From positions 1 to 50,476 of the forward strand of contig JBFEYO010000001.1 of assembly GCA_041562075.1 (NCBI GenBank): a DNA stretch of 50,476 bases. Reading direction: 5' to 3'. The position numbers were made by a program, and so were the translations under genes. The first letter of the stretch is position 1; every line of letters starts with the position of its first letter. Positions 3,302 to 48,585 of the stretch are shown here, one piece after another. The stretch is from Sulfurimonadaceae bacterium (GTDB lineage Bacteria; Campylobacterota; Campylobacteria; Campylobacterales; Sulfurimonadaceae). Below the pieces are notes generated by a model that was given only the letters and a program-made list of their open reading frames with translations, had not been told where the DNA came from and searched no databases.

Positions 3302-3627
3302 ACGCTGCGGCGAGCATAGCTCCCCTTCGCTACGATGACTCTACGTCTGCTTCGGCAGCAGGCCCTCGGCGAGATGAACCCGCCTTGGGGACTCTTTGGC
3401 GAACACTTTCCTTTTAGTATCTATTGTGATTTACTTAATTATTCTTTTTTAACGCTGCGGCGAGCATAGCTCCCCTTCGCTACGATGACTCTACGTCTGC
3501 TTCGGCAGCAGGCCCTCACCCCAAGGGCACTTGTCCCTTCGGTCGGGCGCGCCGAGATGAACCCGCCTTGGGGACTCTTTGGCGAACTCTTTCCTTTTAG
3601 TATCTATTGTGACTTACTTGGTTATTT
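3302..3627. repeat. Two tandem copies of a GC-rich ~150-bp intergenic element; copy 2 carries a ~33-bp insertion
   Basis: Positions 3302-3367 and 3452-3517 are identical over 66 bp. The tails (3368-~3445 and 3551-~3627) are near-identical. The extra segment at 3518-3550 occurs only in copy 2. Each copy contains ctgc-ttcg-gcag (3347-3358 and 3497-3508). The element sits between convergent genes. Confidence 0.9.
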
Positions 3628-3647
3628 ATTACCCATCCTTTTTACTT

Positions 3648-6368
3648 TTACACTTCAACCAGCTTGACACCATCATCCAGTAGATAAGCGATATAGCCTC
3701 TGACGGGTTGGGCTGTGATCTCTCTGACGGCTTTTTTATAAAAATTGACCTGCTTGAGATGGGATTGGGTATGACTCATGGCGGACTTATAGTCGATAAT
3801 GACCCACTCATTTTCCCGTTGTACCAAGAGATCGATATAGCGCAGTTCTCCCTCGTAGGAGATCGCTTTCTCCTTGTGTACAGTTCCTTCTATCTGAACC
3901 TTCACCTGCGCATCCTGTACAAAATATTCCACCCGTCTGCGAATAGAAGAGATCTCCGCTTCACTCAAGGTCGCTCCGTATCGATTAAGCATACTGTGCA
4001 TCGCCTGATCGATATATGCGTATTCAAAGGCCTCCATCATCTCCAACGTATAATGCAGGGCCAGGCCGAACTCAATGGCTCCGTGGTTTTCTTCTTCCTC
4101 TTTGGCAGCAGAGAGAAGGTCCGCTTGGGTACCGTAGTAAAAATCCCTAAAAGCTATTTTAGGCTTCAACTCCACCGCTGCTTGAGGCTTGGGAATCAGA
4201 TCCAGACTACCGCAGACCTCTTCACTTAGACAAAGGTCCTCAAACTTGGAGTCTTTGGATTTATGAATGACAAACAGAGAGTCCTGTGCCCTGGTAAAGG
4301 CCACATACAGTGCATTGAGTTCATCCTCCTTAGAGAGTTGTTTCTCCTTATCCACCGCCCTTGCATACTGCTCATCCAAACTTGAACGCTTACTCATACG
4401 CAGGTAAAGGTTTTGCAGCTGTATCCCTTCATACTCATAAATAATCGGATTCTTGTCCGCTGACTTTTTCCCCAGCCTGTCCAGTACGATCACGTGCTCA
4501 TACTCCAGACCCTTGGACTTATGTACCGTCAGTACGCGAACCCCGTTGAGCTCTTTTTGCGCCGCCGAAGCATCCAGACGTTCATACTCAAATAAAAAGG
4601 CCTCTATGTCCTTATAATTTGAGAGCTTCTCTATGAAACTGAAGATATTCATATCCCCGTCGTATAGACGGTATCGATGAATAAGCTTTTTCAGCTCACT
4701 GGCCAGATCAGGGGAATTGACATCGCAGGGCTTCAGTTTGCAAGGGGCTTGATTGATCAACGCAAAAAAGTTACGGGCATAGATCTCCTGATGGAAATAG
4801 CTGTATTTAAGGTATTCGATCAGGGCCTTGATGCTTTTTTGATTGATCAGCTTGGAGGTGGTCTCGGTAACCACTTCTATCCCCTCCTCTTTTAACAGCT
4901 CTTCCACCTTGGACCCGTCGGCATTGGTCGCTGTGAGCACGGCGATCTCGTTCAGGTCTGCTCCCTGCTCAATAAGAGATTTTAGGGTGCTTACCATCGT
5001 CTCAAGTACCTCATCATTGAAGATCACTTCCACATAACCCCTGGTCGCACCGGGCTTGACTTCCTGAGGAACATAACCCTTGATCTTATCGATAAAGACC
5101 CTGTTGACAAACTCGACCACCTCTTTTTCACTTCGGTAATTAGTACGCAATTGATCAACCTGCACCCCATAATGGTCCGTCACTGCATAAAAAAGCTCTT
5201 TCTTCCCTCCCCGGAAACGATAGATCGACTGTTTGACATCTCCCACCAGAAAGAGTGAGGATCGCTCTTTGGAGCCCATTCCCGACGTCATCTCATCGAT
5301 CAGCGGACGCAGGATCTCAAACTGTATGGTCGAGGTATCCTGAAACTCATCCAGCAGCATATGGTTGATACTCGCATCCAGTCTAAAATATAAAAAGTCA
5401 CTATTGATCCGGCCTTGATTACGCTCGTCCTTGAGAAGATAAAAGACCAGATAGGTGATATCATCAAAGGAGAGTTCGTCCTCCTCTTTTCCCACCCGTA
5501 TCTTGGCTTCAATATAGGTATCCAAAAGCGAAAAGAGCTCTGAGAGAAAATGGGCCTCTTTGGCCTTCATATAATGACGTATTCCTTCCTTTATCTTGAA
5601 CAACAACTCATCCATTTTCGGTTGAAAGTACTTTTTAAAATCCCAATACTCCAGCGTCTCTTTTTCAATCCAGCTTTTAGCGATCAGGGCTTCAATATCC
5701 TCCGCTTCCATGGCGGTACGGCCTCTGGGGCCGATTGCCGTGGCAAAGATCATCTCCTGAAGCTCTTTGAAATCCTGCATCACCTGCTGTTCATAAGGGA
5801 TAAACTCCTCTGCCTCAAAACGAAGCTCTCCCATCTCATTCTTTTTGGCATACAGCTCATTTAGTAGAGAAAAGATGTCTGAGAGTCGTTTGGATGCTAA
5901 CAAGGAGAGGGTCATCAACGCATCGTCCTTTCCCTGAATATTAACCAGTTTCAAGAACATGGCCATGACTTTTAGCTCATGCTGGGATTCAAAGGTGGAG
6001 AAGTTGGGCATCAGGCCCACATGCAAGGAAAACTTTCGCAGAATCTTGGCAAAAAACTTGTCCAGGGTCATCACCTTGGTATCTGAATTAAGTAGGGTCT
6101 TTAAGACCTCCGGGCGTTTAGCCAGAAGCTCTTCCTGGGTGCACTCCAACACTTTGGCTATCTCACCCAGTTCTCCCTTATGTTCCAGATCAATCAGCGT
6201 ATTGACGATACGCTCTTGCATCTCATTAGCCGCCTTGTTGGTAAAGGTCAGTGCAAGGATCTTATCGGCCTTCTCTCCGGAGAATAGCAAAGAGAGATAA
6301 CGTACGACTAGCGAAAAGGTCTTTCCGGATCCGGCCGAGGCCTCATAGGCATGTAGGTCTATAAACAT
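3648..6368 (-). CDS. addA: AddA-type helicase-nuclease (UvrD/Rep superfamily 1 helicase with a C-terminal PD-(D/E)XK nuclease)
   Basis: Walker A is present in ASAGSGKTF, along with LTFTNKAANEM, DEFQDT and VHKSKGLEY. The C-terminal nuclease motif is YIDLLV...VIIDYKS. The start is set at MFIDL (ATG 6366-6368), which overlaps the addB stop as TGATG. The ORF track extends 14 codons further upstream. Confidence 0.85.
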   Translation of the reverse strand: MFIDLHAYEASAGSGKTFSLVVRYLSLLFSGEKADKILALTFTNKAANEMQERIVNTLIDLEHKGELGEIAKVLECTQEELLAKRPEVLKTLLNSDTKVMTLDKFFAKILRKFSLHVGLMPNFSTFESQHELKVMAMFLKLVNIQGKDDALMTLSLLASKRLSDIFSLLNELYAKKNEMGELRFEAEEFIPYEQQVMQDFKELQEMIFATAIGPRGRTAMEAEDIEALIAKSWIEKETLEYWDFKKYFQPKMDELLFKIKEGIRHYMKAKEAHFLSELFSLLDTYIEAKIRVGKEEDELSFDDITYLVFYLLKDERNQGRINSDFLYFRLDASINHMLLDEFQDTSTIQFEILRPLIDEMTSGMGSKERSSLFLVGDVKQSIYRFRGGKKELFYAVTDHYGVQVDQLRTNYRSEKEVVEFVNRVFIDKIKGYVPQEVKPGATRGYVEVIFNDEVLETMVSTLKSLIEQGADLNEIAVLTATNADGSKVEELLKEEGIEVVTETTSKLINQKSIKALIEYLKYSYFHQEIYARNFFALINQAPCKLKPCDVNSPDLASELKKLIHRYRLYDGDMNIFSFIEKLSNYKDIEAFLFEYERLDASAAQKELNGVRVLTVHKSKGLEYEHVIVLDRLGKKSADKNPIIYEYEGIQLQNLYLRMSKRSSLDEQYARAVDKEKQLSKEDELNALYVAFTRAQDSLFVIHKSKDSKFEDLCLSEEVCGSLDLIPKPQAAVELKPKIAFRDFYYGTQADLLSAAKEEEENHGAIEFGLALHYTLEMMEAFEYAYIDQAMHSMLNRYGATLSEAEISSIRRRVEYFVQDAQVKVQIEGTVHKEKAISYEGELRYIDLLVQRENEWVIIDYKSAMSHTQSHLKQVNFYKKAVREITAQPVRGYIAYLLDDGVKLVEV

Positions 6369-43630: not shown

Positions 43631-44086
43631 TTACATTTTCTCTACGACAAACAGTGGCATATCATATTCAACCGGCTTACCGTCATCCACAAGGATCTTA
43701 AGTATTTTACAGTCGAACTCGGCTTCAAGCTCATTCATAATCTTCATCGCTTCAAGAATTGCCAGAGGCTGACCTTTTTTCACTACGTCACCCTCTTTCA
43801 CAAAGGCAGGAGAATCCGGAGACGGAGAAGCATAGAACGTCCCCACCATTGGAGATAAAATCTTATCACCTGCGATCTCTTCAACTGCGGCAGAAGCTGC
43901 TGCCGGTGCTGCACTTTCCGCTACCGGAGCTGCCACAGGCGCTACTGCTACGGGAGCCGCTGCCACTGCTGTAGCAATGGTCGCTTTTTCAAGCTCAATT
44001 GAGAAACCTTCTTTGTTAATCTTCAAAGAGCTGAGCGTACTGTCATCGAACTCTTTCATTAATGATTTTATCTGTTTCATATCCAT
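43631..44086 (-). CDS. accB: Biotin carboxyl carrier protein
   Basis: It has an Ala/Pro-rich linker and the biotinylation motif LEAMKIMNE. The start is set at MDMKQIK (ATG 44084-44086), with AGGAGA upstream. The track ORF extends 44 codons further. Confidence 0.9.
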   Translation of the reverse strand: MDMKQIKSLMKEFDDSTLSSLKINKEGFSIELEKATIATAVAAAPVAVAPVAAPVAESAAPAAASAAVEEIAGDKILSPMVGTFYASPSPDSPAFVKEGDVVKKGQPLAILEAMKIMNELEAEFDCKILKILVDDGKPVEYDMPLFVVEKM

Positions 44087-44196
44087 CGGATTTTCTCTCC
44101 TAAAGCAAATTTTGTAAAAAATAGTGTGATATAATACCGAAAGAAAAATTAAGAAACAGTTATAATGAAATATATGCCAAACAGCAAGGAGTAGGA

Positions 44197-44763
44197 ATGG
44201 GCTTAAAAGCAGATACATGGATACGTGAAGAAGCAGTCAAGAACGGGATGATCACACCCTTTTGCGAAGATCAGGTCGGAAAAGGTGTCGTCTCTTACGG
44301 ACTAAGCTCTTACGGTTATGACATCCGTGTCAGCAACGAGTTCAAGATCTTTACAAACCTTAATTCGACTGTCGTCGATCCCAAACATTTTGATGATGCC
44401 AATGTCGTTGATTTCACCGGGGATGTCTGTATCGTTCCACCCAACTCCTTTGCTCTGGCACGTACCGTTGAATACTTTAAGATTCCCCGCGATGTCCTCG
44501 CAATCTGTCTGGGTAAATCGACCTATGCACGCTGCGGTATCATCGTGAATGTAACACCGTTTGAGCCGGAATTTGAGGGACATATCACTATTGAGATCTC
44601 CAACACCACTCCGCTTCCGGCAAAGATCTATGCCAACGAGGGGATTGCACAGGTCCTTTTCCTGCAGGGAGATGAAGTGTGTGAGACCTCTTACCGGGAT
44701 AAAAGCGGTAAATATCAAGGACAAGAGGGGATCACTCTTCCTCGAATTCTGGATAAGCACTAA
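44197..44763 (+). CDS. dcd: dCTP deaminase
   Basis: It is 188 aa and contains SSYGYD(I)[27 protein letters not shown] and the C-terminal [11 protein letters not shown]. Confidence 0.92.
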
Positions 44764-44766
44764 GCC

Positions 44767-45168
44767 TTGAAACACTCCCTCTCTGCTCCTTTTGGAGCTG
44801 TCATACTCGTCTTTTTTTCCGGCTTTTTATTCCCTTTGATCTTCAGTCTTTTGGATAAACTACTTAGAGAACTTCTTATCTCCCTTCCCCCGCTGCTGTT
44901 AACCATCCTAAGCTTTTCATGGCTCTTGCTGCTTTATTATTTCGGGATCAAGTTTTCCATCGACTATATTTCTGAGCACTTCGAGTTCACATCAGAACAG
45001 AGTCTGTTTACTTACAGCAACATCATCTTTGCGTCCTTGAACCTCTTCTCCTACAGTCTGATGATCTCCCCGTCGATCCTCTCTAACCTGCTTTGGGGTA
45101 TGTTCTATCTCTGTATCATGGGATTTTTCTATTACTTGAGCAGCCGCAGGCTGCTGCAAAAGGCCTAA
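44767..45168 (+). CDS. Hypothetical four-TM membrane protein
   Basis: The TTG start lies 4 nt after the dcd stop. It has four hydrophobic segments and no recognisable motif. Confidence 0.4.
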   Translation: MKHSLSAPFGAVILVFFSGFLFPLIFSLLDKLLRELLISLPPLLLTILSFSWLLLLYYFGIKFSIDYISEHFEFTSEQSLFTYSNIIFASLNLFSYSLMISPSILSNLLWGMFYLCIMGFFYYLSSRRLLQKA

Positions 45169-45642: not shown

Positions 45643-46155
45643 ATGTATAAAAATATCAAGTCATTTACCAAGATCGCCGAGTTTGGACGCAAGCTTCTTG
45701 CCCGCCCTTCACTGGAACTGGCCATACCGATGATCTCATCCTATGCCAAGGAACTTCTTGAAGCCGATCGCTGTTCCGTATTTATCTATGATAAAAAGAA
45801 CAATATGCTCTGGACCGTACTGGCTGATGGCGTGGAGACCATTCGTATCTCCACTGAGGAAGGCATTGTCGGTGCAGCTTTCAGGGATAAAAAAGCACTG
45901 ATTGTTAATGATCCTTATGCTGATCAACGTTTCTCTTCCAAGATTGATCACGAAACAGGCTATATCACTAAAAACATCATCGCCATTCCCATCATGAATG
46001 CTTTCAATGAACCTATCGGTGTCCTGCAGCTTCTGAATAAAAGCAGCGGAGATTTTGACAAGGAAGACAAACGTCTGCTAACCTTTTTCAACCACTACAT
46101 CAGTGGATATGTAGAACTTTCGATCCTCTTTAGTGAAGAATCAGCCAAAGAATGA
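45643..46155 (+). CDS. Stand-alone GAF-domain protein (paralogue 1)
   Basis: Motifs are [41 protein letters not shown] and [16 protein letters not shown]. Its stop overlaps the next gene start as ATGA. Confidence 0.7.
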
Positions 46156-47675
46156 GACATGCGAAACTGATTGCTTCACTTCTGTTAGACTCCTTTAAAG
46201 ACCTTCTGCCTATTATCTTGGTCATTGCCTTTTTTCAGATAGTCATTCTTCAGCAAATTCCTCAAAACCTCGGATCTATCATTCTTGGATTGATCATTGT
46301 CGCCATCGGTTTGGCCATCTTTATCCAGGGTCTGGAGATCGGTATTTTTCCCATTGGCGAGAATCTCGCTCATGAATTTGCGGCTAAAGGTTCGGTCTTC
46401 TGGCTACTTCTGTTTGCCTTTGCCATTGGTTTTTCCACGACCGTTGCCGAACCGGCGCTCATTGCCATCGCTAAAAAGGCCCAGGTGATCTCCTCCGGTA
46501 AGATCAATGCCGACACCCTTCGTCTCACCGTTGCATTCTCCGTCGGCCTCGCCATTGCCCTGGGCTCCTGGCGTATCATCACCGGTCATCCGATCCATCT
46601 GTATATCATTACGGGGTATGTCATTGTGGTACTCTTTACGTTTTTTGTACCCGTTGAAATTGTTGGGCTGGCCTATGATTCCGGCGGGGTGACGACCTCA
46701 ACCGTCACCGTACCCCTCGTCGCCGCGCTGGGTGTCGGACTTGCTTCAAGTATTCGCGGTCGCAATCCGGTAATCGACGGCTTTGGACTGATTGCCTTTG
46801 CATCCCTGACACCCATGATCTTTGTACAAGCCTATGGACTCATCGTTTATAACCTTGACTTTACACCCCTTGATCCTCTGACCGAGATCACCGGTGTCAT
46901 CCCCGAAGCTGCCATTGACAAGTTCTCAAGCATGAATCTCTTTTACGAGCTTATGAGTGTTATCAAGGACATCTTCCCTATTTTGGCGGTGATCTTCTTT
47001 TTCCAATACCTCATCATCAAGCAGCCATTGGCAGGGCTTCGCCGTATTTCCATAGGTATAGTCTTTGTCATCATTGGACTGTATGCCTTTATCGTAGGCC
47101 TTGAGATGGGTCTATTTCCCATCGGTGAGACCATGGCCCTGCAGCTTACTGCCCAGGATAATCTCTTTTATATTTATCTTTTTGGTTTCCTTATCGGCTT
47201 TTCGACGACCATGGCCGAACCGGCTCTGCTCGCAGTAGCCATCAAGGTGGAAGAGATCTCCCAGCAGCGTATTCGTCAGAGCATTCTGCGTCTTTCCGTT
47301 GCCTTTGGAGTCGCCATCGGTATCGCGCTCGGGGCTTATCGGATCGTACAGGGAGATGCCATCCACTACTATATCATCGTCGGCTATATCATCGTCATCA
47401 TCCTGACCTTTTTTGCCCCCAAATATATCATCCCGATCGCCTATGATTCCGGCGGGGTGACGACCTCCACCGTCACCGTTCCCCTGGTCGCTGCCCTGGG
47501 CCTGGGACTGGCAACCCAGATCGAGGGCAGAAGTGCCCTCATCGACGGGTTTGGATTGATCGCTTTTGCCTCCCTCTTTCCGATGATCACGGTTATGGGT
47601 TATGGAGTCATCAGTCAATACCTGGCCTATTATGACAAGCAAAGAAAATCACAAACCAAAGGAGATCCATCATGA
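46152..47675 (+). CDS. Fused double DUF1538-family integral membrane protein
   Basis: It has two homologous ~250-aa halves, each with about six TM helices and the motifs GLE(I/M)G(I/L)FPIGE, GFSTT(V/M)[25 protein letters not shown] and [12 protein letters not shown]. The family assignment is from memory of DUF1538 sequences. Confidence 0.6.
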
Positions 47676-48010
47676 ATTTCGCAACTGTTGTCGCCGTCGT
47701 ATCTGAAGAGAACGAAGATACTGCCATCGATATCGCCCAAGCAAACGGCGCGGGAGGTGTTACTATTCTCAAAGGAAGAGGCCTAGGCCTGGGAGACAAA
47801 ACCACCTTTTTAGGAATCTCGTATGAGCGTTCCGAGTCGGTGTTACTGTTTGTATTGGAAAAGCAGATCGCCTGCAGGGTTATCGAAGCGATGACCCAAG
47901 AGCTTGAGCTTGACAAATCAGGTAATGGACTGATTTTTTCCATGCCCATAGAAAATCTCTCCGGTATCCCGGAAAAACAGATCCGAAAATTTCAAGAGAA
48001 CATACAATAA
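47672..48010 (+). CDS. PII (GlnB)-like small regulatory protein
   Basis: It is 112 aa. The pattern ATVVAVV..ED.AIDIA...[14 protein letters not shown]..-loop-..VLLFVLEK......IEAM........[11 protein letters not shown] matches the PII beta-alpha-beta x2 fold with a short T-loop. Its start overlaps the upstream stop as ATGA. Confidence 0.6.
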
Positions 48011-48037
48011 AAGATTCAATTACTCCGGGGTTGATGT

Positions 48038-48062
48038 AAATTGGATATAATAATCCAAATTT
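48038..48062. promoter_or_regulatory. AT-rich palindrome centred on a TATAAT box upstream of the second GAF gene
   Basis: aaattggat-ataata-atccaaattt forms 9 pairs with one bulge. TATAAT lies at 48046-48051, 33 nt upstream of ATG 48085. Confidence 0.3.
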
Positions 48063-48084
48063 AAAACGAGCACAAAGGGTAGCA

Positions 48085-48585
48085 ATGGCAGCAAAAGTCG
48101 ATTCATATAAAAAAATAGCGGAATTTGGAAAACAACTACTTTCGGATACCTCATTAGACAATGCCCTTCTTCTCATCGCCGATCAAGCCAAAGACCTTGT
48201 CCATGCCGACCGCTGTTCCATCTTTATGTATGACAGCGAAGCCGATATGCTCTGGACCAAATTAGCTGACGGTATCGGTAAGATCGCCATCTCCAAAAGT
48301 TCAGGTATTGCGGGAGATACCTACATGAAGGGTGAACCGCAGGTCGTCAACAAGCCCTATGAAGATGACCGTTTCCTCGCCAATATCGACAAAAAAAGCG
48401 GGTATGAGACCAAAAACATGATCACCGTTCCCATCTTTGACTCACAGCGTACTGTTATCGGTCTGTTTCAGCTGCTAAACAAGGATGAGGGAGATTTTGA
48501 GGCCGAGGATCTGAAGGTTCTAACCTTCTTCGCCAATTACATCTCCGGAACCCTGGAACTCTCCTTTATGATGAAGGATGACTAA
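48085..48585 (+). CDS. Stand-alone GAF-domain protein (paralogue 2)
   Basis: It is collinear with the 45643 protein: KIAEFGKQLL, ADRCSIFMYD, MLWTKLADG, YEDDRF, GYETKNMITVPI, LFQLLNKDEGDFEAED and LTFFANYISG. Confidence 0.7.
   Translation: MAAKVDSYKKIAEFGKQLLSDTSLDNALLLIADQAKDLVHADRCSIFMYDSEADMLWTKLADGIGKIAISKSSGIAGDTYMKGEPQVVNKPYEDDRFLANIDKKSGYETKNMITVPIFDSQRTVIGLFQLLNKDEGDFEAEDLKVLTFFANYISGTLELSFMMKDD

Follow-up and report, generated by a model that had tools for sequence, protein, structure and literature searches.

A fused double-DUF1538 membrane protein and a PII-like protein encoded between two GAF genes in a member of the Sulfurimonadaceae

The locus described here lies on contig JBFEYO010000001.1 of a Sulfurimonadaceae bacterium (GenBank assembly GCA_041562075.1), of which positions 1 to 50,476 of the forward strand, 50,476 nucleotides (nt) in length, were analysed and are here called the window. 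It comprises four genes, encoding a first GAF protein (GAF-1, or GAF-a), a membrane protein with two fused DUF1538 domains, a PII-like protein and a second GAF protein (GAF-2, or GAF-b). The main subject is the pair formed by the membrane protein and the PII-like protein, which recurs in nearly all related loci; the GAF genes appear to be a separable local feature. A preliminary description, made from the sequence alone, had combined all four genes into one candidate ligand-gated transport module. Its open reading frames (ORFs) match those found here exactly, all on the forward strand, and its domain assignments (GAF, twice DUF1538, PII, GAF) were upheld by Pfam. Positions and Pfam scores are given in Table 1.

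Table 1. Genes and spacer of the locus, in window coordinates (aa, amino acids)
Feature	Position	Strand	Length	Pfam match (bits)	Remarks
GAF-1 (GAF-a)	45643-46155	+	170 aa	GAF (58.7)	stand-alone, single-domain
Fused double-DUF1538 membrane protein	46152-47675	+	507 aa	DUF1538 (467.8)	
PII-like protein	47672-48010	+	112 aa	P-II (29.9)	
Spacer between PII-like gene and GAF-2	48011-48084	+	74 nt		where most relatives have a CBS-pair gene
GAF-2 (GAF-b)	48085-48585	+	166 aa	GAF (60.4)	stand-alone, paralog of GAF-a

The stop codon of GAF-1 and the start codon of the membrane-protein gene overlap in the sequence ATGA (46152-46155), and a second ATGA joins the stop codon of the membrane-protein gene to the start codon of the PII-like gene (47672-47675). 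Both overlaps had been reported before and are present in the sequence, as are the 74-nt gap ahead of GAF-2 and the TATAAT box in it (48046-48051), which lies within a short inverted repeat. An AAAGGG ribosome-binding site in the same spacer precedes GAF-2, and asnB is convergent with this gene. A consensus promoter scan called no promoter at the TATAAT box, the numbers of promoters and terminators found by consensus scans across the region were not above shuffled expectation, and the hairpin in the RNA fold of the spacer was not significant (z -1.15). As the promoter and terminator scans and the spacer fold were no better than those of shuffled sequence, the boundaries of the operon are not settable computationally, and an independent promoter of GAF-2 is neither shown nor excluded by the empty scan and the weak hairpin.

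The DUF1538 profile (PF07556) matches the membrane protein in two stretches, and the C-terminal repeat spans the entire profile (positions 1-211 of 211). When the halves were scanned separately against NCBIfam, the N-terminal half scored highest with UmpA (NF041627, 302 bits) and the C-terminal half with UmpB (NF041628, 261 bits), against equivalog cut-offs of 490 and 500 bits, respectively. The score of 516 bits for the whole protein is an apparent equivalog pass that arises from the sum of both halves. Because the half scores fall far below the cut-offs, the protein is regarded as a fused UmpA-UmpB homolog and not an equivalog; its sequence places it in the DUF1538/UmpAB family at the family level. 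The UmpA-like and UmpB-like halves are joined by a low-confidence linker of about 25 residues (residues 238-256) in an all-helical AlphaFold2 (AF2) model with a predicted local distance difference test (pLDDT) score of 79.5. In an alignment of 59 homologs, acidic residues are invariant at matching positions of the two repeats (E62/E318, E70/E326, E100/E356 and D176/D432), which fits cation/proton coupling. A homolog of 759 aa (P0001, from an ENA contig of 2487 nt) has three DUF1538 repeats in place of two, as judged from three overlapping BLASTP matches, and could be a genuine fusion of three or a chimera produced by assembly.

Functional data for this family come from Halomonas zhaodongensis, whose UmpAB, a pair of DUF1538 proteins, acts as a Na+(Li+, K+)/H+ antiporter (PMC5484666). 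The two proteins, when co-expressed, rescue Escherichia coli KNabc, and their antiport, measured in everted vesicles, is pH-dependent; UmpAB was characterised without a PII partner, and none is mentioned in that report (PMC5484666). A literature search on DUF1538, UmpAB and the PII-like context returned this study as the sole functional evidence. The earlier statement that DUF1538 has no defined function is outdated, given these antiport data and the NCBIfam matches to UmpA and UmpB. A match to a characterised transporter family of known substrate had been named as an outcome that would speak against the module; the family match to UmpAB was found, at scores below the equivalog cut-offs. With UmpAB the window protein shares PF07556, two homologous multi-helix halves and the order UmpA then UmpB. 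It differs in being a single fused chain, where the Halomonas system has two subunits, and in its half scores, and antiport is here a prediction. Borrelia BB0017, taken up as a literature lead, proved irrelevant, as it is a YitT/DUF2179 protein.

The P-II score of the 112-residue protein exceeds the Pfam gathering cut-off of 25 bits, and the best match in a phmmer search of the PDB was GlnB of A. fulgidus (E-value 0.007). The AF2 monomer model (pLDDT 78.8) shows a beta-alpha-beta-beta-alpha-beta fold with a disordered T-loop (residues 38-52). The top 50 Foldseek matches of this model are all PII or PII-like proteins (E-value about 2e-5, probability 1.0), among them GlnK1, GlnK3, SbtB, TTHA0516, CPII and PotN. 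The monomer fold and its matches to GlnK, SbtB, CPII and PotN bear out the PII-like assignment made earlier. In the family alignment of the PII-like protein, F46, G48 and E52 of the T-loop are invariant and Y51 is nearly so. The canonical effector-binding residues of PII proteins are R38, Q39, K58, the B-loop GDGK and a C-terminal RxR; the alignment shows L38, G39, L58 and a G-N-G-L B-loop, and no RxR.

Conservation of the pair was surveyed in 80 species-level loci, one genome per species, at a transporter identity of 66-85%, drawn from Sulfurimonadaceae, Sulfurovum, Sulfurospirillum, Hydrogenimonas, Aquificota and Nitrospinota. In 79 of these loci the DUF1538 gene is followed immediately by a PII-like gene, 78 times on the same strand; the locus without one is cut at a contig end. 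Stop and start codons of the two genes overlap by 4 nt in 56 of the 80. The sole inverted case is a Nitrospinota metagenome-assembled genome (L028, 7533-8272), in which the PII-like and CBS genes lie downstream on the opposite strand. Among distant homologs (25-34% identity), the gene immediately downstream carries the RefSeq name 'P-II family nitrogen regulator' in five out of five. Split DUF1538 pairs with PII occur on plasmids or chromids of Chelativorans and Methylocystis (Alphaproteobacteria), and fused DUF1538 with PII in Paraclostridium, Peptoclostridium and Vescimonas (Clostridia). At about 222-224 aa, the product of the P-II gene that follows fused DUF1538 in three clostridial loci (L088 and L089, both 5316-5984, and L090, 5515-6189) has double the usual length and is probably a tandem double-PII protein.

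The association of the membrane-protein gene with the PII-like gene, already proposed in the preliminary description, is thus borne out by 79 of the 80 loci and by every distant homolog examined, which is strong comparative evidence that DUF1538 and PII form a cognate transporter-regulator pair. It is considered highly probable that the two proteins are a functional pair. No paper linking DUF1538 with PII was found in the literature search; RefSeq annotation already displays the adjacency. A survey of the reverse tricarboxylic acid cycle in FEMS Microbes, followed as a lead, was irrelevant, as PII-like appears there only in a reference.

When the neighbouring genes of the 80 loci were clustered, no metabolic partner recurred that would point to a substrate; the families examined included histidine kinases, response regulators, an argB-like kinase and unrelated housekeeping genes. 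In eight loci (for example L047, 4979-5830) DUF1538 is immediately preceded, on the same strand, by the gene of this argB-like amino-acid kinase (Pfam AA_kinase), which may be coincidence or may be related to PII. N-acetylglutamate kinase (NAGK) is a classical PII target, and this neighbour, together with the RefSeq name of the PII-like protein, would agree with an adjacency that is merely syntenic, the PII-like protein acting elsewhere, for example in nitrogen metabolism. Such an arrangement is nevertheless very improbable: the pairing survives across phyla, in split and fused forms of DUF1538 and with overlapping stop and start codons, and the PII-like protein lacks the canonical PII effector-binding residues and matches canonical PII only weakly.

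In 76 of 81 related loci (for example L002, 5580-6032, and L010, 7808-8260) the PII-like gene is directly followed by the usual third gene next to the pair, which codes for a stand-alone protein with a CBS pair (about 131-140 aa; Pfam CBS, 70-74 bits). From this frequency the conserved operon of the clade is taken to be DUF1538x2 - PII-like - CBS, which departs from the four-part architecture of the preliminary description, where a GAF gene comes after the PII-like gene. The CBS-pair gene is missing in the window, where the 74-nt spacer alone occupies its position, and in L006, L033 and L084/85; by comparison with the relatives, the window genome has lost it. As stand-alone CBS-pair proteins of about 135 aa, the third operon products of the relatives resemble known CBS-pair regulators of transporters and enzymes, such as the c-di-AMP receptors CbpB/DarB. 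The difference is that the window has no such gene and that the match to CbpB, at 25 bits where 125 would be needed, is not significant.

The two GAF proteins of the window align gap-free over 166 residues at 48% identity (E-value 7e-59). The motifs previously listed as common to both are present, except that the last has to read LTFF..YISG, since GAF-1 differs there. The nearest solved relatives of GAF-1 are the GAF domain of the Persephonella marina HD-GYP protein PmGH (4mcw, E-value 6e-30), CyaB2 (1ykd, 8e-26) and GAF-B of PDE2A (1mc0, 2e-21), and the PDB matches among GAF domains of the cyclic nucleoside monophosphate (cNMP) type, namely those of CyaB2, PDE2A/PDE10A GAF-B and PmGH, have E-values of 6e-30 to 2e-19. 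Features of such domains are a D-x-x-(T/S)-G-Y-x-T segment and an NKFDE motif. The window GAFs resemble CyaB2, PDE2A/PDE10A and PmGH in retaining D-x-x-(T/S)-G-Y-x-T and N-K...F...D. In contrast to these proteins they are single-domain, have no output domain and lack the final E of NKFDE. The NKFDE region of GAF-2 reads NKDEGDFEAEDL, and both GAFs have N, K, F and D, with the final E replaced by K or L. By sequence the window GAFs are closest to cyclic-nucleotide-type GAF domains, and a cyclic-nucleotide ligand is plausible. An exhaustive search of representative proteins with GAF-1 as query yielded mostly large signalling proteins with several GAF domains, together with a few proteins of roughly 165-176 aa; it assigns the domain to no more than the broad signalling-GAF superfamily and gave no functional clue. 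The free methionine-sulfoxide reductase is a stand-alone GAF enzyme; this assignment was rejected, as NCBIfam gave only weak matches to regulatory GAFs (NifA and PtsP) far below cut-off and the PDB neighbours are cNMP-type GAFs.

Searches for GAF genes within 6 kb of the loci, by tblastn and a family hidden Markov model (HMM), found them near DUF1538-PII in 9 of the 80, all Sulfurimonadaceae; none was detected in the other 71, nor beside DUF1538-PII in any of the five distant homologs. Three configurations were seen at one common place in the chromosome, the slot formed by accBC - dcd or dCMP deaminase - arsC ... asnB. In form A the order is GAFa-transporter-PII(-CBS)-GAFb (window, L001-L008, L015 and L084), in form B transporter-PII-CBS is present without GAFs (seven loci: L009-L012, L014, L017 and L021), and in form C GAFa and GAFb are adjacent with no transporter in the slot (L081 and L082/83). 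The source of L081 is the complete Sulfurimonas sp. HSL-1716 genome; CP147918.1 is an example of a genome whose GAF locus carries the pair without the transporter. In the GAF tree the upstream ('a') and downstream ('b') copies form two orthologous groups, whether the transporter is present or absent. The GAFs of L081 (form C) are 82% and 78% identical to those of L084 (form A), from which it follows that, among close relatives, the transporter unit has been acquired or lost while the GAF genes on either side stayed intact. The transporter tree shows forms A and B intermixed, which indicates repeated loss or gain.

GAF homologs also occur in four further arrays, GAF-GAF or GAF-GAF-GAF, without DUF1538, beside genes for an SLT protein, a methyltransferase and a PAS-GGDEF protein; in all, six of the seven contexts sampled for GAF homologs are plain tandem arrays of two or three GAF genes and lack the transporter. 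Arrays of this kind were seen on the Sulfurimonadaceae contigs L091 and L094 (both 3501-5033) and L093 (1362-4501). In L093 the GAF pair is preceded, at a distance of 34 nt, by the end of a PAS-GGDEF gene of the diguanylate-cyclase type, which may connect these GAFs with signalling by cyclic di-GMP (c-di-GMP).

The description of the GAF proteins as two dedicated sensors did not survive the co-occurrence survey, nor did the tie between GAF pair and transporter, given the GAF genes that stand adjacent without a transporter in L081 and the plain GAF arrays elsewhere. From their distribution the GAF genes would be co-transcribed passengers or accessory inputs and not dedicated parts, and they are, with high probability, not obligate components.

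The observed gene order, overlaps, domain and fold assignments and conservation statistics are best explained, with moderate confidence, by a PII-gated UmpAB-type transporter lying inside, and co-transcribed with, an independent pair of cyclic-nucleotide-type GAF genes. With regard to the substrate, the gating by PII, the PII ligand and any cross-talk between GAF proteins and transporter, the following is what we infer. The core would be a fused UmpA-UmpB-type secondary transporter with two DUF1538 domains, translationally coupled to its cognate PII-like protein. Because of the homology to Halomonas UmpAB and the conserved membrane-embedded acidic residues in each repeat, the transporter would most likely be a monovalent-cation/proton exchanger; that the substrate is specifically an alkali cation exchanged for H+ is given slightly less than an even chance. 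A trimer of the PII-like protein would dock at the cytoplasmic face, where the conserved T-loop, depending on a small ligand, would either block the transporter or set it free; this ligand would probably be an adenine nucleotide, bound in a non-canonical manner. The CBS-pair protein would normally assist as the third member of the operon, lost in the window genome. The GAF genes would be an older, independent tandem pair of single-domain cyclic-nucleotide-type GAFs typical of the Sulfurimonadaceae. In the accBC-dcd-arsC...asnB slot the transporter-PII(-CBS) unit lies between the two GAF genes, and because of this position GAF-a would be co-transcribed and translationally coupled with the transporter.

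Several points weigh against this explanation, and the first of them concern the GAF genes. The distance from GAF-a to the transporter gene lies between -8 and +21 nt in each of the 10 GAF-bearing loci, for which reason co-transcription of GAF-1 with the transporter is likely, and the arrangement has been kept across Sulfurimonadaceae lineages whose GAFs have drifted apart to about 50% identity. Of the four configurations without a CBS gene, three (window, L006 and L084) carry GAFs, and L033 is the only CBS-less case among about 70 GAF-less loci; this concentration leaves room for a functional co-option of the GAFs. The same facts, the CBS loss hinting at a substitution by GAF, would suit the original proposal that all four proteins are one ligand-gated module in which the PII protein plugs the DUF1538 permease and the GAFs are dedicated cyclic-nucleotide sensors, as would the ATGA overlaps of the window, the gap of 2 nt between PII and GAF-b in L084 and the proximity of the GAFs to cNMP-binding domains. 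The proposal is nevertheless judged unlikely, since the GAFs are absent from 71 of the 80 closest loci and from all the distant homologs, transporter-PII-CBS fills the same slot without GAFs in seven loci, close relatives keep an adjacent, intact GAF pair without the transporter, and GAF tandems and triplets stand beside unrelated genes elsewhere.

The further points against a PII-gated UmpAB-type exchanger concern the transporter and its regulator. The substrate assignment to UmpAB lies below the equivalog cut-offs in both halves (302 against 490 and 261 against 500 bits), and a single study, by heterologous complementation and vesicle assay, supplies the functional data for the family. Neither a solved structure nor a fold relative of the DUF1538 protein was found from which a mechanism could be taken: a phmmer search of the PDB gave no match, and Foldseek of the AF2 model against the PDB gave no significant one (best E-value 0.04, template modelling score below 0.2). 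As neither search gave anything usable, no mechanism can be borrowed from a solved transporter. The contacts to ATP and 2-oxoglutarate (R38, Q39, K58, K90, R101 and R103) are not conserved in the PII-like family, so the canonical PII ligand cannot be assumed. The PII-like protein is presumably a homotrimer that docks on the transporter.

These gaps leave some room for a PII-gated transporter of another substrate, such as bicarbonate or another metabolite, comparable to SbtA-SbtB or to the transporter partnered by CPII. The matches of the PII-like model to SbtB and CPII are at the same level as those to GlnK, the homologs of at least 66% identity are concentrated in Campylobacterota, Aquificota and Nitrospinota, which are mostly chemolithoautotrophic lineages, and both the UmpAB assignment, with its sub-threshold scores and single heterologous study, and the DUF1538 fold, without a solved relative, would permit it. 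On the other side stand the invariant Glu and Asp residues at equivalent positions of the repeats, which are typical of cation/proton coupling, the distant PII-paired homologs in heterotrophic Clostridia and on alphaproteobacterial plasmids, and the neighbour families examined, among which carbon-fixation genes do not recur. A substrate other than alkali cations is therefore considered rather improbable, though not as remote as the single four-part module.

Gating of ammonium and bicarbonate transporters by PII proteins is a textbook theme. The DUF1538-PII system is akin to GlnK-AmtB, SbtB-SbtA and PotN-PotABCD: the gene for a small protein with a PII fold and a flexible T-loop stands directly beside a transporter gene and is translationally coupled with it, and the T-loop residues are strongly conserved, as expected of a partner-binding loop. 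It differs in that the transporter is of the DUF1538 family, which has no fold relative in the PDB, and in that the PII-like family of the window does not conserve the residues for ATP and 2-oxoglutarate; the complex is here presumed. A divergent PII subfamily is genetically locked, across several phyla, to a different transporter family, DUF1538/UmpAB. For the PII field this provides a concrete new transporter-regulator pair for testing, and for ion homeostasis a likely missing regulator of UmpAB-type antiporters. The noteworthy and under-studied object is the DUF1538-PII-CBS triad and not the GAF cassette; as the GAF genes are a separable local feature, it is to this triad that effort is due. 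A bolder proposal, that DUF1538-PII(-CBS) represents a phylum-spanning, unstudied class of PII-gated ion transporters with a new membrane fold, to which, in Sulfurimonadaceae, the flanking cNMP-type GAFs were recruited as additional second-messenger inputs that stand in for the CBS protein where, as in the window lineage, it was lost, is regarded as speculative and improbable.

Two ORFs upstream of the locus were also noted. An accB-like ORF on the reverse strand (window 43631-44218) has an implausible hydrophobic N-terminal extension of 45 residues, and its true start is probably the internal MDMKQIK. Between dcd and arsC lies a hydrophobic ORF of 133 aa with a TTG start (window 44767-45168, forward strand), which has no Pfam match but recurs in L001-L004 and L007, where its identity is 50-60%.

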